From Minisyncoccota bacterium (lineage in GTDB: Bacteria; Patescibacteriota; Minisyncoccia; Phycocordibacterales; Phycocordibacteraceae): a stretch of 64,000 bases of DNA. The stretch is from NCBI GenBank assembly GCA_035627595.1, contig DASPLK010000002.1, forward strand, positions 1,824 to 65,823. Reading direction: 5' to 3'. Below are positions 3,655 to 33,819 of this stretch, piece after piece. A program made the translations under genes and the position numbers. The notes under the pieces were generated by a model. That model made no database searches. It saw only the letters and a program-made list of their open reading frames with translations, and was not told where the DNA came from. How positions within the stretch are numbered: position 1 is the stretch's first letter; every line of letters starts with the position of its first letter.

Positions 3655-4632
3655 ATGCCCACTGACCTCAAGAGTCGCGTCATACTCCTCGCTGCTTGCA
3701 TCGTGAGCTTCGGGGCAGGGTATGGCATTACGTTCTTGAGTGGAGGCAATCTTTCTACGGGTGAGCGAGAGCTTCGCGATACCGGACACTACGCGTATAT
3801 TAGTCCGCTACTAGAGTGTAGCGATACCAATATACTTCTACCCCAAGAAGTCCGTGAAGCAGAGCAGGATGTGCGGGAAATTATCGAGCGGCATAAAAAG
3901 GGCGGCAATCTATCGATTGCCGCCGTATATTTCCGCGACTTAAATAATGGACCATGGTTCGGCGTGAATGTAGATACGCTCTTTGTGCCGGGAAGCCTGC
4001 TTAAAGTGCCGATGATGATCTCATATCTCAAGATCCTCGAACAGGACCCATCATTGGCAGAGCAGGAGATTCTATATGAGCAAAAGATGTCGGCCGCTAT
4101 TCAGAACGTGGCCGTCGCTGACCCGCTCACATTAGGAGAGCGATATAGTCCAGACGAGCTTCTAAGGCGCATGATCACACAGTCGGATAATGAGTCTGCG
4201 TATCTTCTATACTCACTCCTAGGCGATGAACGCGTGGGTGAGGTGTATACCGAGCTTGGACTCGGCGCGCCATTTACTGGCCAAGACTACAATATCCGGG
4301 TACGCGATTACGCGACTTTCTTCCGCATCCTCTACAACGCGACGTACCTCTCACCAGAGAGTTCAGAGCGTGCACTTGAGCTATTGGTGCAAACGGATTT
4401 CGACAAAGGCATCGCCGCCGGGATTCCAGCAAATATTCCAGTCGCAAACAAGTTTGGTGAACGCAACTACGTAGGCACGAGTGAGACACAGCTGCATGAT
4501 TGCGGCATCGTTTACGCAAAGGAGCGTCCATACTCACTTTGCGTCATGACACGAGGTACAGACATCGACGCGCTTTCTAATGTGATACGTGAGATATCTA
4601 GCACGGTATACGCACGCATAAATTCTAAATAA
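3655..4632 (+). CDS. Class A beta-lactamase-related serine hydrolase (membrane-anchored/secreted)
   Basis: N-terminal TM/signal. VPMMISYLK resembles the FPMMSTFK SxxK active-site block. An SDN motif (ITQSDNESAYLL) is present. KFG stands in place of KTG. Confidence 0.55.
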   Translation: MPTDLKSRVILLAACIVSFGAGYGITFLSGGNLSTGERELRDTGHYAYISPLLECSDTNILLPQEVREAEQDVREIIERHKKGGNLSIAAVYFRDLNNGPWFGVNVDTLFVPGSLLKVPMMISYLKILEQDPSLAEQEILYEQKMSAAIQNVAVADPLTLGERYSPDELLRRMITQSDNESAYLLYSLLGDERVGEVYTELGLGAPFTGQDYNIRVRDYATFFRILYNATYLSPESSERALELLVQTDFDKGIAAGIPANIPVANKFGERNYVGTSETQLHDCGIVYAKERPYSLCVMTRGTDIDALSNVIREISSTVYARINSK

Positions 4633-9755: not shown

Positions 9756-10751
9756 ATGATTGATCTTGCACACATCGCCCGACAAATGGTCGCGCCCGGT
9801 AAGGGACTCCTGGCTGCTGACGAGAGCAACATGAGCGCTGATAAGCGTCTCAAGCTATATGGCATCGAGCCATCGGTCGAGATGCGACGTACGTATCGCG
9901 AGCTATTTCTAAACACGCCCGGTATCGAAGCGTACCTTTCTGGTGTAATCCTCTATGAGGAGACATTGGAGCAAAAGGGGAATGACGGCGTCTCATTTCC
10001 TGAGTCCCTTGCGTCCCGCGGCATCATTCCTGGAATCAAAGTGGACACGGGAACCGAGCCGTTTCCGCAGAGCGCAGACGAGCTCATCACTAACGGGCTC
10101 ATCGGCCTCCCTGAGCGCCTTGCAGAGTATCGTGCAAATTATGGTACTGGCTTCACGAAATGGCGCGCGGTCGTAAAGATCGACGGCGACCGGCTTCCGA
10201 CCGCAACCTCACTCGTTGAGAATGCGAAGCGTCTTGCAGAGTATGCACGCCTAGTACAGGAGGCAGGCATGGTGCCTATCCTTGAACCGGAAGTGCTGCT
10301 AGAAGGTCCGCATAGCCGCGTACGCGCGCGCGAAGTGCTCGTGAGAACTATTGAGACGCTCATGGCGACGCTGCAAGATCATGCGGTTGATTTCTCAGGT
10401 GTCATACTCAAAACCGCTATGGCTGTTTCAGGAAGCGAGAGCGGTAGGCTGGACTCACCTGAAGAAGTTGCCGAAGATACCGTAGGAGCGCTTATAGAGA
10501 CTGTGCCGTCCTCCGTTCCGGGCATTGTGTTCCTGTCTGGTGGACAGACGCCGGATCAGGCAACCGAGAACCTGCGCGCGATTACTGCCAAAGCTCGGGA
10601 AGTGCACGCGCCGTGGCCGATGACCTTCTCTTATGCGCGCGCCTTGCAAGAAGAAGCGCTCACCATCTGGGCTGGTAAAGATGAGAACATGGAAGCGGCT
10701 CGTGCAGCGTATGTAGCGCGGCTTGCTAAGGTCGCAGACGCACTTATATAA
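9756..10751 (+). CDS. fba: Fructose-bisphosphate aldolase, class I
   Basis: GKGLLAADES...LSGVILYEETL class I aldolase motifs. Start chosen at MIDLAHIARQ. Confidence 0.8.
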   Translation: MIDLAHIARQMVAPGKGLLAADESNMSADKRLKLYGIEPSVEMRRTYRELFLNTPGIEAYLSGVILYEETLEQKGNDGVSFPESLASRGIIPGIKVDTGTEPFPQSADELITNGLIGLPERLAEYRANYGTGFTKWRAVVKIDGDRLPTATSLVENAKRLAEYARLVQEAGMVPILEPEVLLEGPHSRVRAREVLVRTIETLMATLQDHAVDFSGVILKTAMAVSGSESGRLDSPEEVAEDTVGALIETVPSSVPGIVFLSGGQTPDQATENLRAITAKAREVHAPWPMTFSYARALQEEALTIWAGKDENMEAARAAYVARLAKVADALI

Positions 10752-10803
10752 GGTGTGGATATAAATGCGCTACTATCGCTACTCAATGCGGTAGGGTGTA
10801 TAG

Positions 10804-11241
10804 ATGCACACCCGGCATGCCGGCTTCACTTTAATCGAGCTCCTGGTTGTCATCGCCATCATCGGCATCCTTTCTGCAACGGTACTCGTATCCCTGAATA
10901 CCGCGCGTAGCAAAGCGCGTGATGCTCGTCGTGAGGCCGATTTGCGGCAGGTGCGGACAGCGCTCGAGCTTCATTACCATGAACACGGGCGCTACCCATA
11001 TCACGTTTCAGGCCAGCGGCTTTCAGGTATAGCATCCTCAATGACCCCTACTTATATAGGAGCCATACCGTTTGACCCTGTAGCAGGGGATACCAGCACT
11101 GGCTACCGCTACTACTCGACTTCAGACTACGATGGGTACCAAATGTTAGTTATGCTCGAGACTGACGCATTAAGTAGCTGGTGCCGTCATGATGGAGGCG
11201 CAAACCCTCCGGCGGTCTGGGCAGCATATCCTCTCTGCTAA
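10804..11241 (+). CDS. Type IV pilin-like protein (prepilin signal)
   Basis: MHTRHAG|[52 protein letters not shown]. Confidence 0.85.
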
Positions 11242-11246
11242 ATCCT

Positions 11247-11693
11247 ATGTCACACGCAAATCAACCGCGCGGCTTCACGCTCATCGAACTACTCATCGTC
11301 ATTGCTATTATCGGCATCTTGTCTGCGACTGTGCTCGTATCGCTCAATCAAACACGAGTGAAGGCGCGTGACGCGCTGCGCCAGTCAGACTTGCGTCAAG
11401 TCCGTACCGCACTAGAGATTTACTATTTTGATAACGGCCGTTACCCAACAGACGGTCCAAATACACGTCTAGGAGAGATATCCTCGTCATTGGTCCCTAG
11501 ATATATGCCTAAGATGCCCGTTGATCCGACCTACGGGTCAGGCAGTAGTGGGTACCGATATCGTTCGGATTCCGCTGGCGAGCAAGGATACGAGATACTT
11601 GTGAATATGGAGACTGATAGCGTTACCTGGTGTAGGCAGGCGGGCGGTGCACCATCTACTGCCTGGGCCTCGTACCCGGCTTGTAGTAGCTAG
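11247..11693 (+). CDS. Type IV pilin-like protein (prepilin signal)
   Basis: MSHANQPRG|[52 protein letters not shown]. It starts 6 nt after the preceding pilin gene. Confidence 0.85.
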   Translation: MSHANQPRGFTLIELLIVIAIIGILSATVLVSLNQTRVKARDALRQSDLRQVRTALEIYYFDNGRYPTDGPNTRLGEISSSLVPRYMPKMPVDPTYGSGSSGYRYRSDSAGEQGYEILVNMETDSVTWCRQAGGAPSTAWASYPACSS

Positions 11694-11731
11694 CGACTTG
11701 CAGAAGCGCCCTTAATCCGTATACTTCCCGC

Positions 11732-12361
11732 ATGCCACAACTAACCGTCACCCCCCGCACTGAGATCGGGAAGTCCTCCTCGCTTTTGGCGAAGGACGGC
11801 CTCATGCCTGCTGTTGTCTACGGACATAAGCAGGAGGCGACCCCGGTTTCTCTTCCGATTGCGGATTTCACCAGGATTCTCCGCGAGAGCGGTGAGTCCG
11901 TTGTCATCGACATCGATGGCCTCGGCAAGCCAATGCAGGTCTTGATCCACGATATCGACCGCGATCCTGTTTCAAATCAGCCCCGCCATGCAGACCTTTA
12001 CGCTATCGAGAAGGGAGCAAAGGTTGAGGTAGCCGTACCGCTTTCCTTTACTGGCGAGTCGTTTGCGGTAAAAACCGGTGCAAACCTAGTGAAGGTGCTT
12101 CATGAGCTCCAGATCGAGGCTGCGCCTGCAGACCTTCCGCAGGAGATCGAGATCGATATTTCTGCACTCAATGCTGTTGGTGATCAGATCCATGTGAAGG
12201 ATCTCGTCCTACCGAAGGGCGTTGTGACCCATGTAGACCCAGAAGAGGTCGTTGTGCTCGCGCAGGAAGTCGAAGTAGATACTGAGACTGATACTGCCGC
12301 TCCAGATATGGGAGCTATCGAGGTAGAGAAAAAGGGTAAGGACGAAGAACAGGCGGCATAA
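11732..12361 (+). CDS. rplY: 50S ribosomal protein L25 / general stress protein Ctc
   Basis: LTVTPRTEIGKSSSLLAKDGLMPAVVYG...SLPIADF is an L25 N-terminal beta-barrel signature, followed by the Ctc-type C-terminal domain. Confidence 0.8.
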   Translation: MPQLTVTPRTEIGKSSSLLAKDGLMPAVVYGHKQEATPVSLPIADFTRILRESGESVVIDIDGLGKPMQVLIHDIDRDPVSNQPRHADLYAIEKGAKVEVAVPLSFTGESFAVKTGANLVKVLHELQIEAAPADLPQEIEIDISALNAVGDQIHVKDLVLPKGVVTHVDPEEVVVLAQEVEVDTETDTAAPDMGAIEVEKKGKDEEQAA

Positions 12362-12376
12362 ACATGAACGCTTCAC

Positions 12377-12406
12377 AAAAAGCGGTTCCGAGAGGGACCG
12401 CTTTTT
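12377..12406 (+). terminator. Rho-independent terminator after rplY
   Basis: aaaaagcggttcc-gagag-ggaccgcttttt hairpin followed by a T run, then a TATACT -10-like hexamer. Confidence 0.6.
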
Positions 12407-12423
12407 GATATACTAAGCTTCTT

Positions 12424-13770
12424 ATGGGTGCACGACTTCTCTTCGCAGCACTTCTACTTAGTACCATCGGCGCGATTGCTCCGTCGGTATTATTTGCGCA
12501 GAGTACGGATGCGACCGCGCAACGTCGCGCAGAACTTCAGCGTCAGCTAAATTCAGTGGAATCACAGATCGCAGCAACCAACTCTGTCATTACGAAGCTT
12601 CAGGGCGAAGGCGCATCATTGCAGCGCGATATCAATATTCTCGATGGAGAGATCAAAAAGGCAAAGCTCCAGGTGCAGGCGACCGATATCGCAATCCAAG
12701 CGCTGGCAAGTAACATCACAGTCCATTCGAGAACCATCAGTACGCTCACGGAACAGCTGGGAACTCAAAAGGAGGCGCTCGCAGAAGTGATCCGCAAGAC
12801 ACGTGAGTACGATGACTACTCTTTGGTGGAGGTCGCGTTTTCTGCTAAGGACGTATCCGAGTTCTTCGGCGATCTCGATTCTTATGCAGCGATCAACGCC
12901 GCCATCGACGCTTCAAGTAAGCGCATCATTTCCACACGCGAGTCTACATCCCAGGAGCGCGATGCGCTTGAGACTCAGAAGTCGCAACACGAGAAGCTAA
13001 AACAGTTGAAGGTGGCTGAGCAGCGGAAAGTTCAGGAGCAGGAAGTCGCAAAGCAGAAGCTGCTCGATCAGACCAAGGGGCAAGAAGCCGCGTATCAGCA
13101 GGTTAAGGCAATGCATGAGCGTACTGCAGCGCAGATCCGTGCTGAGCTCTTTGCGCTAGCGGGCGGAGGCGGCGCAATTCCATTTGGCACAGCGGTCGAA
13201 CATGCAAAGACAGCATCACGTCTCACAGGCGTTCGTCCCGCGCTCATCCTCGCAATTCTCTCTCAGGAATCTGATCTCGGAAGGAATGTCGGTCAGTGTC
13301 TTATCACAAGTCTTGAGACAGGCGATGGAAAGGGAAAGAACACAGGCACGCCGTTCTCGGGTGTCATGAAGGTGCCGCGTGATACCGTCCCGTTCAAGCG
13401 CATTATGGATGCGCTTGGCCAAGACTGGTCTACAACAGCAGTCTCCTGTCCGCAGCCGGGTGGCTATGGAGGTGCGATGGGACCAACGCAGTTCATTCCT
13501 TCTACGTGGGAAATGTATGAGGGCCGCATCAAGAGTGCGCTTGGGGTTGCTGCATCAAACCCATGGAATTCACTACATGCGATTACCGCAACGGGCTTCT
13601 ATCTAGCTGATGTCGGTGCCGCTGGAGGTGCTTACCAAGCAGAACATACGGCAGCAGCCCGATATTATGCTGGCGGCAACTGGGCAACGGCAGGACAGGT
13701 ATACGCTAACAGCGTAATGGGGAAGGCAGCCGCTTTCCAGAAGGATATCGATACGCTAAACGGAAATTAG
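12424..13770 (+). CDS. Secreted coiled-coil protein with C-terminal lytic transglycosylase (SLT/MltB-like) domain
   Basis: Signal peptide. About 230 aa of heptad coiled-coil (EnvC-like). Then ILSQESDLGR (catalytic Glu context) and GAMGPTQFIPSTW, which are typical of lytic murein transglycosylases. Confidence 0.7.
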   Translation: MGARLLFAALLLSTIGAIAPSVLFAQSTDATAQRRAELQRQLNSVESQIAATNSVITKLQGEGASLQRDINILDGEIKKAKLQVQATDIAIQALASNITVHSRTISTLTEQLGTQKEALAEVIRKTREYDDYSLVEVAFSAKDVSEFFGDLDSYAAINAAIDASSKRIISTRESTSQERDALETQKSQHEKLKQLKVAEQRKVQEQEVAKQKLLDQTKGQEAAYQQVKAMHERTAAQIRAELFALAGGGGAIPFGTAVEHAKTASRLTGVRPALILAILSQESDLGRNVGQCLITSLETGDGKGKNTGTPFSGVMKVPRDTVPFKRIMDALGQDWSTTAVSCPQPGGYGGAMGPTQFIPSTWEMYEGRIKSALGVAASNPWNSLHAITATGFYLADVGAAGGAYQAEHTAAARYYAGGNWATAGQVYANSVMGKAAAFQKDIDTLNGN

Positions 13771-13844
13771 GCGGTTCCTTTCTTCCTATACTTTTCCACA
13801 TTGGATAAACGAAAACCATGTAGGTCGGTTATGCTTAGACTTAC

Positions 13845-15269
13845 ATGAACAAGACACTCGCATTTGTCCTCTCCGTATTATTATTGTCATCGCCGCTATA
13901 CTCGTCCGCACAAGAAGCCGCTGATCTGCCAGAACCAGAAGCGGTTGAGCAACAGGAAACTGCTGTTTTGCCAGAAACAGTCGAGCTACCAGCACGCCTC
14001 ACTGCTCCTGAAGGACTCACCTCGTGTTTTGAGACATATCGCTTTGGCTCGGTATATGCAGATTTAGCTCCATCACTCACAGAAGCATCGCAAAGCTCCT
14101 CGCTCGCATTCTCAGGGACGATAACAAATGAGAATCCATATCCTGTATCTGATATCACGATCTGGGCGAAAGTATTTAAGGTTCGTACGGAAGGAAAGGA
14201 CATAAACGGCCCGGATGTGCTTGCATGGGAAGCGGTCGCAACTGATCTAACCCTTAAAGCAGGCGAGACACGTCCGCTCTCGTATGAATGGTTCGTTCCT
14301 GCAGATGCCGAGCCGGGAAACTACCAGCTCGCAACCTATGTCACCAACTTCGATAGGTTTGAGCTATCAGGTCTGACCTTCACGGACGATATCGTCGGCA
14401 TGAAGAATGAGTTCACGGTGGTTGGAGACTCTATGGGCGCAGTGCGCTTTGATAAAGATGGTGTAACGGTTGCTGATCGCACATTTTACTTTGCTGCCTA
14501 TCCGCCAACTCTTCCTAGAGATACGGAGTCCGTACCGGTAGTCGCTACTATCGTTAACACAACGCCGGCACCCTACTTTGGAACGGTAACGTGGAAGCTG
14601 CACTATTGGGATCGCATTACAAATCGCACGCTCATCTCTGAATCAACTGAAGAGGTGCAGGTTAATCCAAATGAAACTGCGACCGTATCCTATACCGTGG
14701 ATGATACAGATCACGCGGTGTACTATCTCGTTGGCGAACTAGAGACCGAGCTAGGCTCGAAATCAATTATTGGCGTACGCTTTGTACGCGAGGGAGTTCA
14801 GGAGGCACGTTTGAACTTCGTAACGGGTACACCTGACCCAGAGAGCGGAAAGGGTGTTGCGGTTGCGTGTATTCACGCAACTAACTACACGCCCGTTGAA
14901 AATGGCCGCATAGAGCTTTCTGCTCGCCGTTCGGGACTCTTTTACGATCTCCTCGCGCCGTTTGGAATTGGCGATCTTGGATTCAAGAAGTATGAGGGCC
15001 TAATCTCTAGCGAGATTTATGCGCTTGAGATGCCTCTTACTGCAGCAGCAGCTTCATACGTAGTAAGCGCAAAACTGTATCAAGGAGATGAGCTCGTGGA
15101 CCAGGTGAGTGTGCCGTACTGTGAAGGTGACAAGTGCGCATCCATGATCTGGGTGTACGTATCCGTAGGTTTGATCCTCCTCAGTCTTATTGGAATCGGT
15201 GTGTACGTTCTTCTGAGACGACGACGTACTACTGCAATACCGCAGCCACCAGTAACCCCAACCGTATGA
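13845..15269 (+). CDS. Secreted hypothetical protein with C-terminal TM anchor plus poly-Arg stop-transfer
   Basis: Signal peptide (LAFVLSVLLLSSPLYSSAQE). C-terminal IWVYVSVGLILLSLIGIGVYVLLRRRR. No recognisable catalytic motif. Confidence 0.6.
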   Translation: MNKTLAFVLSVLLLSSPLYSSAQEAADLPEPEAVEQQETAVLPETVELPARLTAPEGLTSCFETYRFGSVYADLAPSLTEASQSSSLAFSGTITNENPYPVSDITIWAKVFKVRTEGKDINGPDVLAWEAVATDLTLKAGETRPLSYEWFVPADAEPGNYQLATYVTNFDRFELSGLTFTDDIVGMKNEFTVVGDSMGAVRFDKDGVTVADRTFYFAAYPPTLPRDTESVPVVATIVNTTPAPYFGTVTWKLHYWDRITNRTLISESTEEVQVNPNETATVSYTVDDTDHAVYYLVGELETELGSKSIIGVRFVREGVQEARLNFVTGTPDPESGKGVAVACIHATNYTPVENGRIELSARRSGLFYDLLAPFGIGDLGFKKYEGLISSEIYALEMPLTAAAASYVVSAKLYQGDELVDQVSVPYCEGDKCASMIWVYVSVGLILLSLIGIGVYVLLRRRRTTAIPQPPVTPTV

Positions 15270-17272
15270 TCCGTATCACCAACGCCCTCGTTTTCTCGCT
15301 AGTACTTTTGGGAGCTGTCTCGTACGCACCGCAAGCGGAAGCTAAGAGTGTGTCTCATAGCTATGTGTACGAGGCATACATGATGCTCACCCAGGCGACG
15401 CCATTTTGGGCGGAAATGAGCAATCCGAACGTGACGGTTACCTATGAAGCCACGATCACTAATGCAGACACGGGTGCAGTGATCAATGATGGTGCGCAGG
15501 TGCCCAAAGGAACACGCATCAAGATAGCGCCTAAGCCGCATACCTCGGACGATATTTACTGGTTCGGCACTGGTTCCTCAAATGACAGTCCGTATGGTAG
15601 CTGGGGCACTTCCGCTCCTGGCGTCACCTGCGACGCTAAGGACTTCCTGAACCCGGTCTACTACGTCGGTGATGTGTATGTGTCTGTGATTGTCCCTCCG
15701 CCAACTAAAACGATTACACAGTCAAGCAATATGACTTGCGGAGCTGTTGCCGCAGATGGATCAAAAATATGTACCGTGACGGGTGTAGGAGCTGCTACAG
15801 CAACAGTTAAATTTGCTGCGACATCCGGTACATGGCACTCATCCTACAAACCTTCGGGAGATCCAACTACGTGTAGGCGTGGATTTAGTCCCGTATATAA
15901 TACATATCGAAATCCGGACGGTTGGTCGTACTCCAGCGAAGTTGCACGTGTCGATGTTCCGGAGAAGTCTATTACGTTCTCTTTTAACGCAGTAGATGTT
16001 CAGGCACCGCCAGCAGCTCCAACGATAACGTGTCCAGCTTCAGGTAAGGTGGGACAAGAGCTTAGCTTCACCTTTACCGCAGCGGATCCAAACAGTGACC
16101 AGCTTCGTTACGGTATTAACTGGGCAGGGGGCACGACTGTTACCCAGTGGGCACCTGCATCAGGATACGTAAATAGCGGAACTGCCCAGACGGTTAAGCG
16201 CACATGGACTTCTGCTGGCACGTACACGGTGAGGGCTCTTGCCCAAGACAGCAAGGGAGCATCCTCTGCATGGGCCTCGTGCCAGGTAACGATTTCAGCG
16301 TCGCCTGACCTCATCCCAACTTCGCTTACACCGCAGCGAGCAGTCGAAGATAGGTCCGTAACGTTCGTTGCCAACATATCGAATGCAGGAGGAGCGGCTG
16401 CTGGAACATTCTCATCAACGGTGTACATCTGTGCCCAGGCAGATACAGCCTGCAGGAATAGTGTCGTCGCAAACGCAAATAACTCATGGTTTAAACGGCT
16501 TGTAGCGTTCTTCATACCATCTGTAGCGCGAGCTGCTACTGCGGTTCAGGTGCGGCTAAGTGGAAGCGGAATTGCTGCAGCTTCAAGTGGGCAGCAAACG
16601 GGAAGCTACACATTCCCTAATCAAGGCACGTACGTCATGCGTGTATGCGCAGACCGTCCCGCTAATGCGGTCGTCGAGTCTAATGAGACGAATAACTGTC
16701 AGGATTGGACCACAATTGTTGTTGATCCTGCAGTGCCGCCTTCAGTCTCGTGTGCCGTATCTCCAACACGCATCAGCTCAGGTCAAAGTGTTACGTACAC
16801 GACGACATCTAATGGCGGAGCTACGGGACCTTACACCTGGACTCCTTCAGATGGAGCAAACGTAGGTACGGGCGCATCAGTGACTCGCACAATCACTACG
16901 CCTGGCCCTCACAGCATGACCGTAAAGGGTTCAAACACAGCGGTAGCAAACTGTCCGCTTGTGGATGTGACCGCAACCTGGTGTACGAGTTCAACACCGG
17001 ACCTCACCATAACCGCAGAGCCTAGTCGAGTTAACATTGGCCAGTCAGTTGAGCTTGAGTGGAGTGCTAGGGGAGTTAATGGCCAGAACGCTACTTGTAC
17101 GGTTACGGGCCCTGGAGTTTCCTGGTCTGGACCGGTCTCTCTAGCACCTTCCTGTAGCGTATCTGGATCAGCAAATCCGGTCATAAACACTCAAAGTACC
17201 TATACGCTCACCTGTGGTGCTACGAGCGAGTCAGTTATTGTGAACGTGGTGCCTGACGTCGTCGAGTTCTAG
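15266..17272 (+). CDS. Large secreted protein with multiple Ig-like/PKD-like domains (paralog of 18355..19749)
   Basis: ATG overlaps the upstream TGA (ATGA). Signal peptide (LVFSLVLLGAVSYAPQAEA). Repeated Cys-bounded ~90-aa modules. The C-terminal VIVNVVPDVVEF motif is shared with the paralog. Confidence 0.65.
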   Translation: MIRITNALVFSLVLLGAVSYAPQAEAKSVSHSYVYEAYMMLTQATPFWAEMSNPNVTVTYEATITNADTGAVINDGAQVPKGTRIKIAPKPHTSDDIYWFGTGSSNDSPYGSWGTSAPGVTCDAKDFLNPVYYVGDVYVSVIVPPPTKTITQSSNMTCGAVAADGSKICTVTGVGAATATVKFAATSGTWHSSYKPSGDPTTCRRGFSPVYNTYRNPDGWSYSSEVARVDVPEKSITFSFNAVDVQAPPAAPTITCPASGKVGQELSFTFTAADPNSDQLRYGINWAGGTTVTQWAPASGYVNSGTAQTVKRTWTSAGTYTVRALAQDSKGASSAWASCQVTISASPDLIPTSLTPQRAVEDRSVTFVANISNAGGAAAGTFSSTVYICAQADTACRNSVVANANNSWFKRLVAFFIPSVARAATAVQVRLSGSGIAAASSGQQTGSYTFPNQGTYVMRVCADRPANAVVESNETNNCQDWTTIVVDPAVPPSVSCAVSPTRISSGQSVTYTTTSNGGATGPYTWTPSDGANVGTGASVTRTITTPGPHSMTVKGSNTAVANCPLVDVTATWCTSSTPDLTITAEPSRVNIGQSVELEWSARGVNGQNATCTVTGPGVSWSGPVSLAPSCSVSGSANPVINTQSTYTLTCGATSESVIVNVVPDVVEF

Positions 17273-17335
17273 TCAGACAGCCGGATGACACTGAAGTGAG
17301 CGGTTGCGGTGCAGCCTGAACAGTGATCTATCCAC

Positions 17336-17656
17336 ATGCGTGATACCGTCCCTGTAAAGGAGGCGGTATCATTGCGTTATATGGATGAACCTACTACTAC
17401 TCCTGTGCAAGAAGCATCTGCGTCTATAAAGAAAAAGCTTCCCATTTATGCTCTTATCGTTGCCCTGCTTGTTACAGCAGCTCTCGCCGCGGCAGCGCTT
17501 TGGCACTACCATCCGTATTTTAAAGAGCAGCGCGCGGTGCAAGAGGGCGAGGAAAGACAGGCCATTCTCAACTCGCTCCCTGAGAATCCTGCGGCCAAAG
17601 ACCTCACCTTTGAGGAACGTGAGGCGATCCTTTCGGGCCTTGAGATAGCTGAATAG
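17336..17656 (+). CDS. Small single-pass membrane protein
   Basis: Single TM helix (LPIYALIVALLVTAALAAAALW), co-oriented within the secreted-protein operon. Confidence 0.45.
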   Translation: MRDTVPVKEAVSLRYMDEPTTTPVQEASASIKKKLPIYALIVALLVTAALAAAALWHYHPYFKEQRAVQEGEERQAILNSLPENPAAKDLTFEEREAILSGLEIAE

Positions 17657-17739
17657 TTTTCCCCCTAAAGGGTTTTGCCCTGGTATGTGAGAGAGCCTCA
17701 GGAGTATACTTAGTGTATTAACCTACGAATTATTTCCGC

Positions 17740-18336
17740 ATGCGTACCATTAAGAAACTACTGGGTGCTATACACAAGCCTCTACTTACGGCGCTTATCG
17801 CCGTGTTTGTTGTCGGCGGTGTTGCCGTCGCTCAGACAACCTTCACACAGCCTGCATCAACACCTCCTGGTGGAAACGTCTCGGCACCGGTAAATGTTGG
17901 AACGACATTTCAGCAGAAGCTTGGCCAATTGTGGTCAAAGTCCATGGGTACGGATGATGGATACTGTATTGGGGACAGCTGTATCACGGAGTGGCCAACC
18001 AATACGATCGCGAGCTGCCAGATGTGTATTTCGGTCAAGGCTGACACTAGCGGCGACAACAGCAAGGCGCGTCAGTGTGGCGGCACCTCAGGCGGAATAG
18101 CTGCAGGTGGAGGTACGTCGTGTGTGCCGATCGACCAGTGGACCGCACCGTATCGTGACGATACTGACGACCGTGCCGGTGGCTGTCAGATGCAGTGGAA
18201 GCTCGACTGTACGGCTCCATACGGCGATAGACCAGCGCCAGCCCCTCCTACTTACACGGGTGATGGAAATGACGAAGTCGTAAATCCAGGCGATAGGTTT
18301 GAAGAAAGGTCTACCGAGTACGAAACAGTACAGTAA
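17740..18336 (+). CDS. Cys-rich secreted/signal-anchored hypothetical protein
   Basis: N-terminal TM/signal (LLTALIAVFVVGGVAVAQT). Ten Cys residues in a 150-aa ectodomain. Confidence 0.5.
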   Translation: MRTIKKLLGAIHKPLLTALIAVFVVGGVAVAQTTFTQPASTPPGGNVSAPVNVGTTFQQKLGQLWSKSMGTDDGYCIGDSCITEWPTNTIASCQMCISVKADTSGDNSKARQCGGTSGGIAAGGGTSCVPIDQWTAPYRDDTDDRAGGCQMQWKLDCTAPYGDRPAPAPPTYTGDGNDEVVNPGDRFEERSTEYETVQ

Positions 18337-18354
18337 GTCCTTATCGTCTATTTC

Positions 18355-19749
18355 ATGCGCTTCCTTCTAGTATTCCTGTCTGTTGCGATATTCGCACTTC
18401 CGCATATCGCAGAAGCAGGATCTTCTGACAATCTGTCGGGTTGGGCATGGTCATCCACCATCGGATGGGTAAGCTTCAACAGCACAACAGGAGGCGGCGC
18501 TAATTATGGCGTAACCGTGAGCGACAGTGGCCTCATGAGTGGATACGCATGGTCTCCAAACGTGGGCTGGATAACCTTCAACAGCAGCCAGCTTGGTGGT
18601 TGTCCTACTGCACCGTGCCAGGCAAACTTCAACAAGCAGACGGGCGCAGTAACCGGATGGGCACGCGCCCTCGCAGGTAACGGTTCGTCCGTCCAAACAG
18701 GTGGTTGGGGAGGCTGGATACAGCTTTCCGGTAGCTCGTACGGAGTATCGGCAACAGGCTGCCAATGGGATGGCTATGCATGGGGAGGAGGACAAAACCT
18801 TCAGAATGGCGTTATTGGCTGGCTTTCATTTAGTGGTTCGGGATACGGGGTGACGGGTACGGGAAGTGCGTGTGTCGCTTCGTCGGTAGACCTGACGGCA
18901 GGAGCCGTCACGCCAACAACCGCAACTGCTGGATCAGCGATAACTCTTCGCGCAAATGCTTCAAATATTGGTACTGCAGCATCGGGGAGCTTCCCGGTGC
19001 TGTTCCAAGTACTTGAAACGGGAGCACGCTTCAATAGCTCGTACTTGGCTGCCATTGCTGCTGGCGGCAGTAGAGAAGGCACCGCAAGCCATACTTTTAG
19101 CGATGAGGGCACGTATTCTGTCCGAGCCTGTGCGAACTACAACACCTCATGGGCCAATATCACGGCTGAAGGCAACTACGCAAACAATTGTGGACCGTGG
19201 ACAACAATTACGGTACAAGCCGCCTCCTCACCCGCACTTAGTTGTAGTGTCAGCAATACCAGTGTCAGTCCCGGACAAAGCGTGACATACAATGCAAATC
19301 CGTCGGGTGGTGCTACCGGCCCGTACAGCTGGAGCGCAGCTGATGGGGGAAGCTACGGCACTGCTGCCACTGTTACGCGTACGCTTACGGCTCCTGGCGT
19401 TTATGCGATGAATGTCGATGCGTCGAATACGGCTGTCTCTTACTGTCCAACCGTGTCAGTTAGCGCGTGCCCTGGATCACACACAGCCTCCATCGAGGCT
19501 GACAGGACCCGCGTCAGTTCCGGTTCTACCATTACGCTCAACTGGGAAGCTAGCGGCGTCGCTCGGAGCTGTGTGATAACAGGGCCTACAGGCACGCTCC
19601 ATACCGTAAATGCTACGAGCTGTAACATTCCTGACGGCACTATTACTGCGGCGGTCACGACCCAGAGCACCTTCACCATTTCCTGCGATAGCGGAGAGAT
19701 TACGGACTCCGTCATCGTAAACGTCATCCCTGAGTTCACAGAGTTCTAA
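18355..19749 (+). CDS. Secreted Ig-like repeat protein (paralog of C-terminal half of 15266..17272)
   Basis: Signal peptide. The NNCGPWTTITV...SGGATGPYSWSAADGG...TAVSYCP blocks are near-collinear with NNCQDWTTIVV...NGGATGPYTWTPSDGA...TAVANCP in the paralog. Ends in VIVNVIPEFTEF. Confidence 0.65.
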   Translation: MRFLLVFLSVAIFALPHIAEAGSSDNLSGWAWSSTIGWVSFNSTTGGGANYGVTVSDSGLMSGYAWSPNVGWITFNSSQLGGCPTAPCQANFNKQTGAVTGWARALAGNGSSVQTGGWGGWIQLSGSSYGVSATGCQWDGYAWGGGQNLQNGVIGWLSFSGSGYGVTGTGSACVASSVDLTAGAVTPTTATAGSAITLRANASNIGTAASGSFPVLFQVLETGARFNSSYLAAIAAGGSREGTASHTFSDEGTYSVRACANYNTSWANITAEGNYANNCGPWTTITVQAASSPALSCSVSNTSVSPGQSVTYNANPSGGATGPYSWSAADGGSYGTAATVTRTLTAPGVYAMNVDASNTAVSYCPTVSVSACPGSHTASIEADRTRVSSGSTITLNWEASGVARSCVITGPTGTLHTVNATSCNIPDGTITAAVTTQSTFTISCDSGEITDSVIVNVIPEFTEF

Positions 19750-19761
19750 ACGTAGAAGGGT

Positions 19762-19795
19762 GAGGAAAACCCCGTGTTTGCACGGGGTTTTCCTC
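19762..19795 (+). terminator. Hairpin terminator ending the secreted-protein operon
   Basis: gaggaaaaccccgtg-tttg-cacggggttttcctc, a perfect 15-bp stem. Confidence 0.65.
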
Positions 19796-19814
19796 TATGG
19801 TACAGTTGCCGACG

Positions 19815-20063
19815 ATGAAGACAGACATCCATCCGGCAAACTACCGCCAGGTTATCTTCGAGGACATTGCCTCGGGGCAGTCTTTCCTTTTGGGCTCTAC
19901 TATCCGTACTACGGAGACGGGCACCTTTGAAGGCAAGGAGTACCCTAAGGTGATCGTCGAAATCTCGTCGAAGTCCCACCCGTTTTACACGGGCGAGGAC
20001 CGCACCCTCGATAAGACCGGTCGCGTTGAGCGCTTCAAGCAGCGCGCCGCAAAGCGTAAGTAA
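19815..20063 (+). CDS. rpmE: 50S ribosomal protein L31
   Basis: MKTDIHPANYRQVIF...HPFYTGE L31 signature. Confidence 0.85.
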   Translation: MKTDIHPANYRQVIFEDIASGQSFLLGSTIRTTETGTFEGKEYPKVIVEISSKSHPFYTGEDRTLDKTGRVERFKQRAAKRK

Positions 20064-20073
20064 CGACGCTTAC

Positions 20074-20106
20074 GAACGCCCGCCTCTACTAAGGAGGCGG
20101 GCGTTC
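20074..20106 (+). terminator. Hairpin terminator after rpmE
   Basis: gaacgcccgcctc-tactaag-gaggcgggcgttc, a perfect 13-bp stem. Confidence 0.6.
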
Positions 20107-20123
20107 TGCGCTATCATAGACCT

Positions 20124-21077
20124 ATGGAATACTCTCCAGAATTTAAAAAGAATTTCTCGACTGCGTATCTTGCGGAAGAGTACGAGCGTCTTGTCGCTGA
20201 GGCAGAAGAGGCTGTTTTTGCTGCAGGTGGAGATGCTGAGCTTCTCCTAATGGCTGAGGAGGACGTTAAGCGAATTGAGGAGCGTAAGGGTGAAATATTG
20301 AAGGAGATAGAGCGCATACTCGACAAGGACAAGGAGGAGGCTGCAAAGCCTCACGCCATCGTACTTGAGTTTAGGGCTGGTGCTGGCGGGGACGAGGCGA
20401 CCCTGTTTGCAGGTGAGCTTAAGGAGATGTACACGCGGTATGCGGAAGGGAAGGGGTGGAAAACGCGTGTCATCGACGACCTCACTGTAGAGATCCAGGG
20501 CACTGACGCGTATGACGCGCTGCGCTACGAGACTGGTGTGCACCGTGTGCAGCGTGTCCCGCTTACCGAGAAGTCCGGCCGTATACATACCTCAACCGCG
20601 TCAGTTGCAGCGCTACCAATCCGCCAGAAGCCATCGGTGGAGATCAACCCTGCGGATATACATATGGAATTCACGCGCTCGGGAGGCGCCGGCGGCCAGA
20701 ACGTGAATAAGGTTGAGTCTGCAGTGCGACTCGTGCATATCCCAACAGGCGTAGACGTGCGCTCCTCAAGCGAGCGCAGCCAGCTAGCCAATCGCGAAAA
20801 GGCTATGCAGATCCTAACCGCGAAGCTCGAGGCACTCGCCATCGAGGAAGAGGCAAAGCGGCACTCAGACCTGCGTGCAGGCCAGATTGGCACAGGGGAT
20901 CGTTCTGAGAAGATCAGGACCTATAATTTCCTCCAGGACCGCATTACCGACCATCGTCTGAAGGAGTCTTGGCACAACCTGCCTAAGATCATGGCAGGCG
21001 GACTTGATGACATTGTTGAGACTCTGAAGCAGCGTGCAGCCGAGGGTGGGGTGGGACCGGCCGAGGAGGCCGACTAG
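20124..21077 (+). CDS. prfA: Peptide chain release factor 1 (short form)
   Basis: GGQ motif ([24 protein letters not shown]). The [17 protein letters not shown] block aligns to the RF1 PxT tripeptide-anticodon region. 317 aa. Confidence 0.75.
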
Positions 21078-21115
21078 CCCGGGAATTGCTTGTTTTATAG
21101 GCCCGTGATACCTTA

Positions 21116-21826
21116 ATGAACAATATGACCATACCAGAAATGGCCGGTGTTGGTGTTGACCGTCTCTTTGCGACGGGCGCTCACTTTGCTCAGTTGAAGA
21201 GCCGCCGGCATCCTTCAATGAAGCCCTACATTATCGGCACGAAGTCTCGCGTCGAGATCTTCGATCTTAAGAAGACCGACGAGCAGCTAGCAGCTGCTAA
21301 GGCCGCCATTGCCGCTCTTGCGCGCGATGGTAAGACCGTCCTCTTCGTAGGTGGCAAGCGCGAGGTCTCCGATATTCTTCGCGATACCGCCCGCCGCATC
21401 GGCGCACCATATGTTGCCGGCCGTTGGCTTGGAGGAACTATCTCCAACTTCACTGAAATCAAGAAGCGTATCGATCGCCTTGCTGATCTCTCGCAGAAGC
21501 GCGATGCAGGTGAGCTCACGAAGCTCTACACCAAGCTTGAGCGTATCTATATTGATCGCGAGATCGAGCGCCTCTCTGAGCGTCTTGAGGGCATCCGCGA
21601 CCTTTCCAAGCGTCCTGACGCCATGGTCATCGTTGATACGCGCCATGAGGCACACGCAACCAAGGAGGCACGGGAGGCTGGCATCCCAGTCATCGGTGTC
21701 ATGAGCTCTGACTGCAACATCAAGGATGCTGCGTATCCGATCGCAGGTAACGATTCCTCCCGCGAGACCGTTACCCTTATCCTCAACGAGCTCGCTGCTG
21801 CATACGAGCAGGGCCGCAAAGGCTAG
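21116..21826 (+). CDS. rpsB: 30S ribosomal protein S2
   Basis: GAHFAQLKSRRHPSMKPYI...TVLFVGGKRE S2 family motifs. Confidence 0.85.
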   Translation: MNNMTIPEMAGVGVDRLFATGAHFAQLKSRRHPSMKPYIIGTKSRVEIFDLKKTDEQLAAAKAAIAALARDGKTVLFVGGKREVSDILRDTARRIGAPYVAGRWLGGTISNFTEIKKRIDRLADLSQKRDAGELTKLYTKLERIYIDREIERLSERLEGIRDLSKRPDAMVIVDTRHEAHATKEAREAGIPVIGVMSSDCNIKDAAYPIAGNDSSRETVTLILNELAAAYEQGRKG

Positions 21827-21880
21827 AGTAAAGCCGCATTGCGGCTTCGCTCGTTTATCTATTTAGATCTACCTGTACCT

Positions 21881-22462
21881 ATGGAAATCACGACCGAAAC
21901 ACTGAAGATGCTTCGCGACAAGACGGGCGTCTCTGTTATGCAGTGCAAGAAGGCGCTTGAGGAGGCAAATGGCGATGTTGATCAGGCCGAAGTAATCCTC
22001 AGGAAGCGTTCTGGTGCTGCTGCTGATAAGAAGGCTGACCGTGAGCTTGGCGCGGGCGCGGTTGCGACCTACGTACACGGCGGCGAGATTGGCGCAATGG
22101 TGCTCCTTTCTTGCGAAACTGACTTCGTCGCTCGCAACGAGGAATTTCCGCAGCTTGCCCGCGAGATCGCTATGCAGGTAGCAGCATCGAACCCGACGTA
22201 CCTATCCGAGACTGAGATCAGCGAGGAAGCAAGGAACGCAGCCATGGCGGTCTTTAAGGAGGAGGTGAAAGATAAGTCTGAGGACATGCAGGAGAAGATT
22301 CTTGAGGGCAAAATGAAGAGCTACTTCAAGGACCAGGTTCTTCTAGAGCAGGCATACATCAAGGACGATTCCAAGACCGTTCGCGACCTCATCACCGAGG
22401 CTTCGCAGAAGTTCGGCGAGCGCGTCGAGATCAGCAAGTTTGCGCGCTTTAGCGCCCGCTAG
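21881..22462 (+). CDS. tsf: Elongation factor Ts
   Basis: LKMLRDKTGVSVMQCKKALEEANGDVDQAEVILRK UBA-like N-terminus and the ETDFVARNEEF core. Confidence 0.85.
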   Translation: MEITTETLKMLRDKTGVSVMQCKKALEEANGDVDQAEVILRKRSGAAADKKADRELGAGAVATYVHGGEIGAMVLLSCETDFVARNEEFPQLAREIAMQVAASNPTYLSETEISEEARNAAMAVFKEEVKDKSEDMQEKILEGKMKSYFKDQVLLEQAYIKDDSKTVRDLITEASQKFGERVEISKFARFSAR

Positions 22463-22468
22463 CCGCCT

Positions 22469-22873
22469 ATGGCGTACCTGATCGCCATAGCCATCTCATT
22501 CCTACTCCTTGGCGGTTTCCTCGCGCTCACGCGCTTTGAGACTGGACGGGGCGTACGGTTCTTTGGAAGCATTCGTACTCGCTTTGATACAGGCGTCGAG
22601 CGTACGAGCTTCATCATCCGCCATGTTGATTGGAGTGCCGTGCTTGCGACACTTGTACGTACCGCTGCAGCGCGTATCGTGCATGACATCGCGCACGCGT
22701 CCCTGATAGCCGTGCGTATCATTGAGCGCCTTCTTACGCGCGTGGTAAAGTACCTGCGCTCAAGTCGTCAGCAGGCGGCCGCGACAAGCGACAGGAAGAA
22801 GTTCGACTTGCGTGCGTCCTTGGCGCAATTGCGTCAAACCCTGAAGAAGGCAAAAGAAGAGGCAGAGGTGTGA
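22469..22873 (+). CDS. Hypothetical small membrane protein
   Basis: N-terminal TM (LIAIAISFLLLGGFLAL). No recognisable motif. Follows tsf. Confidence 0.35.
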   Translation: MAYLIAIAISFLLLGGFLALTRFETGRGVRFFGSIRTRFDTGVERTSFIIRHVDWSAVLATLVRTAAARIVHDIAHASLIAVRIIERLLTRVVKYLRSSRQQAAATSDRKKFDLRASLAQLRQTLKKAKEEAEV

Positions 22874-22888
22874 TACAGTGCGTTGTGC

Positions 22889-22965
22889 GCCAGCGTAGCT
22901 CAGTTGGTTAGAGCAGCTGTTTTGTAAACAGCAGGTCGTCGGTTCGAACCCGACCGCTGGCTCCA
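22889..22965 (+). tRNA. tRNA-Thr (anticodon UGU), CCA encoded
   Basis: Cloverleaf read by eye: acceptor GCCAGCG/CGCTGGC; D-arm TAGCTCAGTTGGTTAGAGC; anticodon stem GCTGT/ACAGC with loop TTTGTAA (UGU); T-arm GTCGG-TTCGAAC-CCGAC; discriminator T, then CCA. Confidence 0.8.
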
Positions 22966-22970
22966 AACGA

Positions 22971-22994
22971 AAACGGCCCCATATGGGGCCGTTT
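22971..22994. terminator. Bidirectional hairpin between tRNA-Thr and the convergent thioredoxin-like gene
   Basis: aaacggcccc-atat-ggggccgttt. Confidence 0.6.
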
Positions 22995-22997
22995 CGC

Positions 22998-23681
22998 TTA
23001 TCGCTTTGAGGTTGTTGTGGCAGTCGATGTCGCCATCTCAAAGAGACGCTTGGGGAACTTCGGTTCAAACTCCTCGACTGAGGTGAATCCATTCACGCGC
23101 TTGCCGTCGATGACGAAAGCCGGGAAAGGAGCCTTTATCTTTTCGACAGCAATGAGAGTGGAGAGGGCGCCAAGATCAAGGTTGTAGTCGAAGGAGTAGA
23201 CGCGAAGTGACGGGTACGTTTCGCGCAGGTACGAGAGCGCAGCACCGGCCCTATCACAATCCGGACAATCACCCTCATTGGAGTAGAAGTAGAGGACCAC
23301 GACTGGCTCGAGATCACAGGCCTCTGCAAGGCGCTTGGTGAGGAGGTAATCGCGGATCTGCAGAAGGGTGTACTGCTTCTTCAATTGCAGCACCTGCGCA
23401 TCGTCGCTACCGAGCCGCTCCTCGGTCACGGCGACCTTGTCGCCTAAGGTCGATACCTCACGTGAGAGTACGTTGCCCTCGGTGAGGTTCTCACACGACG
23501 CTTCTTCAAGGAGCGAGAACTGGGTCTCTATGGAAAGGGTGTCGGTTGCGAGCTGGTTTTGGATAGCTGCAAGGTCGGCAGCACGCTCACGGTTCAAGCG
23601 ATCAATAAGGTAGGCGATCGAACCGATGATGGCGATTGTGATAATGAGTGCGAGAAGCGCGTTACGGGTGAGTAGATTCAT
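22998..23681 (-). CDS. Membrane-anchored thioredoxin-fold protein with coiled-coil (CxxC)
   Basis: N-terminal TM (ALLALIITIAIIGSIAYLI). Coiled-coil segment. VVLYFYSNEGDCPDCDRAG is a thioredoxin-like CPDC motif. Confidence 0.5.
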   Translation of the reverse strand: MNLLTRNALLALIITIAIIGSIAYLIDRLNRERAADLAAIQNQLATDTLSIETQFSLLEEASCENLTEGNVLSREVSTLGDKVAVTEERLGSDDAQVLQLKKQYTLLQIRDYLLTKRLAEACDLEPVVVLYFYSNEGDCPDCDRAGAALSYLRETYPSLRVYSFDYNLDLGALSTLIAVEKIKAPFPAFVIDGKRVNGFTSVEEFEPKFPKRLFEMATSTATTTSKR

Positions 23682-31950: not shown

Positions 31951-32607
31951 ATGGCACAGGTTCACGACAGCAAGGAGGCCTCAGGGCTGCTCGCACAGGT
32001 ATTCGCAAGGAAGTTCAGCTTCGTTGCGGCCTTTACGCTTGTATTTTTTGTGACCTTCTCGGTGCTCCAGGCGTTTGAGCTGGTGCCTGAGGAGATTGCA
32101 AAAGAGGAAGTAAAGGAGGGGCGCCTCACTGCATCAGTCGCTGAGACGGTAAAGGCGCTTCCGGAGTATCCGACGCGTATTGAGATCCCGGCTATTGAGA
32201 TGAATGCGGAGATTGCGAACCCGACGTCGACAAATGTTGCGGTACTTGATCGCGCGCTCCTGAAGACGGCGGTCCGCTATCCGACGTCGGCACGACTTGG
32301 CGAAGAAGGGAACGTTATCCTTTTCGGCCACTCGAGCTATCTTCCGGTCGTGAACAATGAGGCATATAAGATCTTCAATGAAATTCAGAAGCTTGAAGAG
32401 GGTGATCGCATCACCGTCTATGGCACCGAAACTGTATACGTATACGAGGTGGATGCCGTAGAAGAGAAGGATGCTGAAGCAGATGCAATCCCACTAACCG
32501 TAGGGGAGCCGACGCTAACCCTTTCGACTTGCGATTCGTTCGGAAAGAAAACCGACCGGTTCGTTGTTACCGCAAAGCTTGTGGGAAGCCATCCGATCGA
32601 GGACTAA
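31951..32607 (+). CDS. Sortase family transpeptidase
   Basis: N-terminal membrane anchor. The catalytic triad is arranged in sortase order: ILFGH (His), TLTLSTCD (TLxTC Cys), and DRFVVTAKL (Arg). Confidence 0.75.
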   Translation: MAQVHDSKEASGLLAQVFARKFSFVAAFTLVFFVTFSVLQAFELVPEEIAKEEVKEGRLTASVAETVKALPEYPTRIEIPAIEMNAEIANPTSTNVAVLDRALLKTAVRYPTSARLGEEGNVILFGHSSYLPVVNNEAYKIFNEIQKLEEGDRITVYGTETVYVYEVDAVEEKDAEADAIPLTVGEPTLTLSTCDSFGKKTDRFVVTAKLVGSHPIED

Positions 32608-32721
32608 GGTCCCCGTTGGATGGCTCGTCGCAAGATGAGAAGTTCGGCCGCGAAAGCGGAAGCGAGCGAATGTTCAAACGTGCTCCCAATTTCGGGTTCA
32701 GCACAAGCAAGGAGAACAGAG

Positions 32722-33705: not shown

Positions 33706-33819
33706 TTGTTGGTGCGTGCGGGGCTTAAAACCCCCGCACGTCACCTCCATCTCTTTCTCCTTTTTTATACGCTGCGAAAGCAGCAGGGAATTATTTCTTA
33801 TCACTTTACTGAAACACCT

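Follow-up and report, generated by a model that had tools for sequence, protein, structure and literature searches.

A conserved coiled-coil lytic transglycosylase gene and variable surface-protein modules in a probable single transcription unit of a Paceibacteria genome

Six consecutive co-directional genes (g1 to g6) on the + strand, spanning 12424-19749, were analysed in a 64,000-nucleotide (nt) stretch of DNA (the window, to which all coordinates refer) from one genome locus of the Paceibacteria/Parcubacteria branch of the candidate phyla radiation. The explanation that we favour, and regard as moderately probable, is that they form one transcription unit composed of two evolutionarily separate parts, a core cell-wall enzyme (g1) and swappable surface modules (g2 to g6). 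The enzyme would be expressed from its own conserved extended -10 promoter directly behind the rplY terminator; its hairpin, with helices of about 100 residues and of the EnvC/PcsB/CwlO/RipC type, would be coupled to an FtsEX-like membrane regulator, and it would cut the cell's own peptidoglycan during growth or division. Genes g2 to g6 would lie in a hypervariable slot before the rpmE promoter and be read through from the g1 promoter, each module providing one or more small or membrane-anchored proteins and then a secreted multi-immunoglobulin-like (Ig) CARDB/PKD protein, whose C-terminal domain (VNVIPxFxEF-COOH; the EF tail) would dock onto the anchor encoded upstream. The modules could thus be exchangeable surface display units, serving adhesion or forming a surface coat, and the slot a permissive, well-expressed insertion site rather than a sign of a functional tie to g1. 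The genes and their products, with lengths in amino acids (aa), are as follows.

12424-13770, + strand: g1, 448 aa, exported coiled-coil protein with an SLT_2 domain
13845-15269, + strand: g2, 474 aa, predicted type I membrane protein with a signal peptide and a beta-rich ectodomain of about 400 aa; proposed partner of g3
15266-17272, + strand: g3, 668 aa counted from ATG, predicted secreted multi-Ig protein containing CARDB and PKD domains, with an EF-tail domain at its C-terminus (nt 16994-17269)
17336-17656, + strand: g4, 106 aa (the alternative start ATG 17378 may be the true one), small single-pass membrane protein with a helix at aa 37-55; opens the g4-g5-g6 trio
17740-18336, + strand: g5, 198 aa, predicted secreted or anchored protein with eight Cys and an N-terminal hydrophobic segment
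18355-19749, + strand: g6, 464 aa, predicted secreted four-domain beta protein with a GWAWS-repeat domain (aa 27-168), CARDB (aa 179-288), PKD (aa 294-369), an Ig-like EF-tail domain (nt 19483-19746) and the free tail IPEFTEF

Much of what the original prediction had said of this cluster was borne out. The open reading frame (ORF) listing confirmed the coordinates of six consecutive + strand genes with tiny or overlapping junctions, including the ATGA overlap of g2 and g3 at 15266-15269, the remaining gaps measuring 74, 63, 83 and 18 nt, and hydrophobic-segment analysis found a signal peptide or membrane helix in all six products. The description of g1 as a signal-peptide protein combining an EnvC-like coiled coil with an SLT domain agrees with a PF13406 match, a modelled hairpin and EnvC as the top structural match. 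Likewise, g2, described as a C-terminally anchored secreted protein, begins with a signal-like segment and ends in a membrane helix followed by RRRR; the 668-aa Ig-like protein g3 and its proposed 464-aa paralogue g6 both contain CARDB and PKD domains and share 38-39% identity across their C-terminal two thirds; g4 has the one helix expected of a small transmembrane protein, and g5, described as Cys-rich and secreted, has its eight Cys and hydrophobic segment. The strong hairpin said to close the unit was recovered, and the single operon is likely as judged from promoter motifs and folding (both below). Above cut-off, Pfam detected SLT_2 in g1 and CARDB and PKD in g3 and g6, and gave no match for g2, g4 or g5.

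Conservation and architecture of g1

One genome per species was scanned, which gave 80 loci with g1 relatives (43-83% identity), and all proteins of the window were mapped onto them (individual loci are given as L numbers). These loci share the backbone rplY-g1-[slot]-rpmE-prfA-rpsB-tsf. In about 70 of 78 of them a full-length g1 orthologue (43-100% identity) stands between rplY, which ends 66-310 nt before it, and rpmE, and the order downstream of the slot is always rpmE-prfA-rpsB-tsf. Among the 60 distinct species in which both g1 and rpmE were visible, the two genes are separated by at most 250 nt, with no surface genes, in 26, by 0.4-1.3 kb in 5 and by 2-9.8 kb of variable genes in 29, and the slot genes vary between species in number and family. 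Empty and filled slots interleave along g1 identity (L023, L031 and L033 empty at 61-63%; L004, L019 and L020 filled at 62-63%), and the same slot pattern was seen in four further contigs with precomputed gene calls. In addition, proteins with the C-terminal domain of g3 and g6 are encoded away from g1 as well. g1 is a core gene of Paceibacteria, present, of full length and conserved independently of the surface genes; because 26 of 60 species have an empty slot and the contents of filled slots vary, g1 is not dedicated to g2 to g6.

The protein itself is divided into three parts.

aa 1-26, + strand: signal peptide of g1
aa 30-245 (nt 12511-13158), + strand: coiled-coil hairpin of g1
aa 254-447 (nt 13183-13764), + strand: catalytic domain of SLT_2/MltB type, with predicted catalytic Glu282

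The NCBI protein identical (100%) to g1 is named 'lytic murein transglycosylase [Candidatus Paceibacterota bacterium]', and the organism is therefore placed in the Paceibacteria/Parcubacteria branch. More than 2500 homologues are named lytic murein transglycosylase of Paceibacterota, and among 120 listed homologues all 119 with a precomputed Pfam entry carry PF13406. In g1, PF13406 scored 33.8 bits (cut-off 24.3) over aa 256-365 and the GAMGPTQFIPSTW motif is present; no LytM, CHAP, NlpC/P60 or other peptidase-type domain was found with Pfam or NCBIfam. phmmer aligned LAILSQESDLG of g1 to IIGVETRWG of Slt35 (1ltm, 1d0k), with E282 falling on the catalytic Glu, which we take to be Glu162 of Slt35 within an E-S/T motif. 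Across 22 homologues, E282 and the GGYGGAMGPTQFIPSTW block are invariant, as are both residues of the Cys pair C292...C342 that flanks an insertion inside the SLT_2 domain. On these sequence grounds the enzyme is probably active and of the MltB type.

The N-terminal part was examined with an AlphaFold model (22 homologues; predicted local distance difference test score (pLDDT) 78), in which helices 30-130 and 144-245 pair into one long antiparallel hairpin and residues 254-447 make up a globular domain behind it. A comparison of the family profile with all solved structures returned EnvC of FtsEX-EnvC complexes first (8hd0_E, E 2.4e-6; 6tpi_A, 2.3e-5), g1 41-232 being aligned in register to EnvC 32-223 of 8hd0_E over the full hairpin, and matched the catalytic part to MltB/Slt35; Foldseek with the g1 model also listed EnvC:FtsX first, with PcsB lower down. 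The coiled-coil partners of FtsEX are EnvC, PcsB, CwlO and RipC, and none of the partners covered by a review carries an SLT domain (PMC11627006); ftsE and ftsX have been reported from other classes of the Patescibacteria phylum (PMC11809585). By analogy, the coiled coil of g1 may couple to a membrane regulator such as FtsEX, and the cleavage of the cell's own peptidoglycan in growth or division is the most likely role of the enzyme.

Exported modules and the EF-tail domain

The genes g2-g3 and g4-g5-g6 are two co-inherited modules of exported proteins within the hypervariable slot. Homologues of g2 (38-42% identical) were found in L010, L036, L037 and L051; the g2 homologue is followed by a g3-like gene in L010 and, with 4 nt of overlap between the two, in L037 and L051, and the ORF next to the g2 homologue in L036 encodes an EF-tail protein. 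The g4-g5-g6 trio recurs in L087 and L088, always as the final slot genes before rpmE, with g4 homologues (60-71% identical) at the matching position and g5 as the most conserved member (80-86% identity, versus 61% for g1 and 77% for RF1); in a third record, g5- and g6-like genes have adjacent locus tags. The third-position G+C of g2 to g4 is below that of the flanking genes.

Both g3 (CARDB, 1.4e-12 and 48.2 bits; PKD_4, 8e-12 and 45.5 bits) and g6 (CARDB, 37.3 bits; PKD, 28.5 bits; PKD_4, 28.4 bits) exceed the respective Pfam cut-offs and begin with hydrophobic segments. The AlphaFold model of g6 (pLDDT 89) is a four-domain beta array with Foldseek matches to generic tandem Ig arrays only, and neither its N- nor its C-terminal domain has a Pfam or NCBIfam model. 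For g2, Pfam matches were limited to sub-threshold beta-sandwich (Ig/CBM-like) families, no relative was found among solved structures and profile-profile comparison with g6 gave no relation. For g5, there was no relative in Pfam, NCBIfam or solved structures; its family comprises 14 clusters in the whole protein collection, all hypothetical, and its PPGGNVSAPVN motif occurs in no other ORF of the window or the loci. The N-terminal domain of g6 (window 18433-18858) is all-beta with GWAWS..IGW(I/V)SFN repeats, and many database proteins share just this domain with g6 (32-39% query coverage, 57-65% identity), so the GWAWS domain recombines with other C-terminal parts.

The most conserved part of the otherwise mosaic g3/g6-like proteins is the tail domain. 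All 45 non-redundant proteins of this kind in the loci end in EF or EY, sharing a terminus of the form ...QSTYTLxC...VxVN(V/I)(I/V)PxFxEF directly before the stop codon; g3 (...VNVVPDVVEF) and g6 (...VNVIPEFTEF) are the only window proteins that carry it, with nothing beyond. An exhaustive search of 1.84 billion representative proteins, with a profile built solely from the final ~92 residues of g3 and g6, matched 932 clusters at E<=1e-3, including 203 at E<=1e-10. Among the best 150 clusters, nearly all matches reach the last residue and 133 end in EF; complete proteins among the best matches start with signal peptides, and ten EF-tail proteins looked up by cluster were named just 'CARDB domain-containing protein [Patescibacteria group bacterium]'. 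The domain, about 90 aa long, is strictly C-terminal and has no Pfam or NCBIfam match; in the g6 model (pLDDT 89) it is a beta-sandwich at aa 377-457, the last seven residues, IPEFTEF, being unstructured.

The gene before an EF-tail gene nearly always encodes a membrane-anchored protein. One example is an unannotated family of about 320 aa, represented by 35 genes in the loci, which combines an N-terminal membrane helix with PD40-like 'SPDG..VAY' repeats that score 20.6 bits against Pfam PD40 (cut-off 20.9): the next gene encodes an EF tail in 22 of the 35 cases and a variant tail in 4, and the contig ends in 7. From this gene order we infer that the EF-tail domain may dock its protein onto the membrane-anchored product of the preceding gene.

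Further observations were made on this family. Its genes, coding for PD40/TolB-like repeats (for example, L002 11442-12428), often form tandem copies of the pair with an EF-tail gene. The window encodes no member of the ~320-aa family, its place being taken by g2 and g4/g5; g2 does not belong to the family, and g4 was considered as a member and rejected, as its 13-bit match covers the membrane-helix part only and is not significant. A variant tail, ...KILPAFREQ-COOH, belongs to slot genes of 593-793 aa in more distant relatives (L057, L058 and L060), and these genes, too, have a ~320-aa family member in front of them.

The transcription unit and its surroundings

Since a generic sigma-70 scan returned no + strand promoter at 10.5-20.5 kb and a terminator scan missed both bracketing hairpins, folding and a lineage -10 motif were used in their place. 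The following elements delimit the unit.

12376-12407, + strand: rplY intrinsic terminator, 14-bp stem then UUUUU; fold z -4.4 versus shuffles
12406-12414, + strand: predicted g1 extended -10 promoter (TGATATACT), 9 nt before the ATG
19762-19795, + strand: terminal hairpin, perfect 15-bp stem; 76-nt fold of -32 kcal/mol, z -4.75 versus shuffles
19798-19806, + strand: predicted rpmE promoter extended -10 (TGGTACAGT), from a pattern scan

Hairpins equivalent to the rplY terminator lie 3' of rplY in most related loci, and in most of 77 such loci the region upstream of g1 consists of a terminator, TGnTATACT and a start codon about 6-12 nt further on; a looser -10 pattern without TG was found at the expected distance to g1 in 44 of 77. 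As the extended -10 is only 9 nt before the ATG, a leaderless or near-leaderless g1 mRNA is implied. At the other end, the terminal hairpin has no U-run 3' of it, and the rpmE -35 element (TTGCAC, 19778-19783) is located within its loop and 3' arm. TTGC-N17-TGGTATAGT is conserved upstream of rpmE in most loci, about 8-10 nt from the start, and cassette-bearing related loci have an analogous layout of hairpin and promoter before rpmE. Homology and promoter position place the true rpmE start at ATG 19815 (MKTDIHP...), not at 19797 of the longest ORF (19797-20063).

The motif TGnTAYAnT has nine matches in the window, eight of which lie 8-20 nt before the start of a gene or transfer RNA (tRNA) gene on the correct strand; the total count is not enriched over shuffles, and the positions are non-random. 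On the + strand between 12400 and 19810 it occurs solely at 12406 (g1) and 19798 (rpmE), and the four internal gaps of g1 to g6 contain no significant hairpin when folded against shuffles, strong hairpins being confined to the two ends. Because the lineage -10 motif stands only before g1 and rpmE and hairpins are lacking in the internal gaps, g1 to g6 are probably one transcription unit read from the g1 promoter, with rpmE separately promoted. An Rfam scan of 10000-23500 detected tRNA only, with no leader or riboswitch before rpmE or within the cluster. More broadly, the motif points to -35-independent promoters in this lineage and to mRNAs with a very short leader or none. Its positions include 5119, 9714 (- strand), 9740, 12406, 19798, 22871, 28335 and 52456 (- strand), and the genes behind it include fba, pfkB, g1, rpmE, tRNA-Thr, gyrB and rnr.

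The surrounding genes are of the housekeeping type (gap, transketolase, fba, rplY, rpmE, prfA, rpsB, tsf, pheST, gyrB, dnaE, thrS, smc, rnc and rpoBC). Several other features of the window were recorded. Type IV pilin-like genes with the N-terminal methylation motif are located at 10804-11241, 11247-11693 and 41233-41763; the first two, which are 60% identical, stand in tandem shortly before rplY, and in many related loci pilin genes are scattered at varying positions within the corresponding region. A sortase gene (31951-32607) is followed by two genes of unknown family (32620-33705 and 33706-35892), and no LPXTG-type C-terminal signal was recognisable in the products of these two genes. Positions 3-1652, like L002 1-426 and L004 1-458, are the 3' end of a giant gene with a Peptidase_S74 (endosialidase chaperone) domain and a Pro-rich tail; counterparts in related genomes encode 3484-4265 aa with Bact_surface_Ig-like domains and are syntenic, upstream of gap. 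A class A beta-lactamase-like protein (Beta-lactamase2, E 3e-35) is encoded at 3655-4632 amid glycolysis and pentose-phosphate genes.

Alternative readings and comparison with known systems

Several points weigh against a single transcription unit made of a core wall enzyme and swappable modules. The link to FtsEX is drawn from the architecture of g1, and neither ftsE nor ftsX was visible in the window or the fetched loci, nor was any ABC ATPase ORF, taken as a proxy for FtsE, found in the window and 88 loci; in the Foldseek search, moreover, E-values for g1 were only about 5e-3, and SMC, chemoreceptors and toxins, generic coiled-coil matches, appeared beside EnvC. The evidence for docking of the tail is gene order, and the putative partners (PD40-like, g2-like, g4/g5) are heterogeneous, more so than one shared docking mechanism would lead one to expect. 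Promoters of a different type may exist inside g1 to g6, and the presence of the cassette within the g1 transcription unit in 29 of 60 species could reflect a benefit of co-expression.

A bolder proposal combines two claims: that the EF tail is an undescribed Paceibacteria anchoring or sorting signal, read by the PD40-like, g2-like or g4-g5 protein encoded upstream and used in plug-in display modules, and that g1 is the first lytic transglycosylase under FtsEX by way of an EnvC-type coiled coil. We advance it tentatively, as a possibility that we would not bet on. Three other readings are less well supported than the one we favour. In the first, g3 and g6 would build a self-assembling S-layer-like coat, the EF tail binding subunits or a wall polymer, and the upstream genes would be unrelated or chaperones. 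The archaeal S-layer protein 7ptp is indeed among the many tandem-Ig matches of g6 in Foldseek, and a tail that is the most conserved part of these proteins would suit a common invariant ligand such as the wall; however, the close linkage to genes for membrane-anchored partners (in 22-26 of the roughly 28 cases that could be evaluated, with 4-nt overlaps) is left unexplained, and genomes that encode several EF-tail proteins differing in their N-terminal domains are easier to reconcile with display modules than with a single lattice protein. We judge such a coat unlikely.

In the second, the cluster would be an attack module of an episymbiont, secreted g1 cutting host peptidoglycan and g2 to g6 being the adhesins that position it. 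Cultivated relatives of the phylum live attached to host cells, all six products are predicted to be exported, Ig-like CARDB/PKD arrays are a typical adhesin architecture, and fast turnover of the cassette would fit host-range adaptation. Against this, g1 occurs almost universally, at a single locus and in synteny with ribosomal and translation genes, its promoter is conserved and of a housekeeping type, its sequence is conserved whether or not the cassette is present, and its coiled coil resembles regulators of own-wall hydrolysis, all of which make an attack role rather improbable.

The third is the interpretation of the original prediction, in which g1 is a space-making transglycosylase dedicated to a trans-envelope or surface apparatus of g2 to g6 and opens the wall for large proteins. 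Co-oriented surface genes do follow g1 directly in 29 of 60 species, g1 to g6 probably share a transcription unit and multi-domain proteins of 460-1650 aa must cross the wall, but synteny largely refutes it, as g1 is full-length and conserved with rpmE adjoining in the 26 species that have no surface genes, the cassette varies in gene number and family, EF-tail genes occur away from g1, the cluster has no ATPase, channel or platform proteins, and g1 is an MltB-type enzyme with an EnvC-like coiled coil rather than the small VirB1/EtgA-type SLT usual for machines; we give it the least credence. The accompanying statement that no known machine components are present holds for the cluster, where Pfam, NCBIfam and neighbour annotation revealed none of the machine families (ATPase, secretin, platform, channel or other), and fails just upstream, where two type IV pilin-like genes lie at 10804-11693. 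Of the suggested lineage-specific surface apparatus, the lineage-specific surface proteins g2 to g6 stand, whereas machine proteins are absent and g1 is not dedicated. Loss of synteny among relatives had been named as what would speak against the idea: g1 and g2 to g6 are not co-inherited, while g2-g3 and g4-g5-g6 each are.

Returning to the reading of a core enzyme with swappable modules, part of it is already known: g1 carries the NCBI name lytic murein transglycosylase, and the NCBI annotation of both g3 and g6 is CARDB protein. We did not find described the apparent fusion of an EnvC-type coiled coil to a transglycosylase in a gene conserved as part of the core of a large lineage, for which literature searches on the architecture gave nothing specific, nor the EF-tail domain with its gene pairing, nor the hot slot between g1 and rpmE; searches for CARDB proteins in the Patescibacteria phylum likewise gave nothing specific. 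If g1 is regulated like EnvC, PcsB, CwlO and RipC, FtsEX-type control would extend to the cleavage of glycan strands, and a very large uncultured lineage would have one of its central, conserved wall enzymes identified. Should the EF tail prove to be a docking signal, it would represent a new way to hold proteins on a single-membrane cell and offer a simple sequence rule for the surface proteome, hence for likely host-contact proteins. The occurrence of TGnTAYAnT 8-20 nt before gene starts, with the leaderless transcripts that it implies, could also aid the annotation of gene starts in these genomes.

Compared with known systems, g1 resembles the enzymes of VirB1/EtgA/FlgJ type in being a wall-cutting protein at the head of a cluster of exported proteins, and differs in the lack of machine genes, in its occurrence without the cluster in 26 of 60 species, in its enzyme family and in its putative regulatory coiled coil. 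With MltB/Slt35 (family 3, SLT_2, GH103) it shares the ES motif at the catalytic Glu and the GAMGxxQF(I/M)PS(T/S) motif, sequence similarity to solved MltB structures being low (E ~0.02-0.1); unlike them, it has no lipoprotein anchor, carries a 215-residue coiled-coil hairpin N-terminally and contains a Cys-flanked insertion in the domain. The hydrolases and activators with FtsEX-linked coiled coils, EnvC (E. coli, V. cholerae, P. aeruginosa), PcsB (S. pneumoniae), CwlO (B. subtilis) and RipC (M. tuberculosis), are likewise exported and consist of an antiparallel two-helix hairpin followed by a C-terminal peptidoglycan-directed domain, and JGI names some g1 homologues 'CwlO-like'. Whereas those proteins have LytM, CHAP or NlpC/P60 domains of peptidase or amidase type, g1 has an MltB-type domain predicted to cleave glycan strands, and ftsEX is not in its window.

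The EF-tail domain, in turn, is comparable with sorting domains (LPXTG with sortase, PEP- and PGF-CTERM with exo- and archaeosortase, and the type IX C-terminal domain) in being strictly C-terminal on diverse secreted proteins, and with the type IX secretion domain in being an Ig-like beta-sandwich of about 90 residues. It differs from sortase and exosortase signals in having neither a membrane helix nor a basic cluster and in ending with a free EF carboxylate, from sorting systems in general in matching no Pfam or NCBIfam sorting domain and having no identified processing enzyme, and from the type IX system in that the organism has neither an outer membrane nor that system. Finally, g3 and g6 are modelled as bead-like beta-sandwich arrays, as in bacterial and archaeal tandem-Ig surface proteins with CARDB and PKD domains, from which they are set apart by the EF-tail domain, by the GWAWS domain of g6 and by the pairing of their genes with those of membrane-anchored partners.

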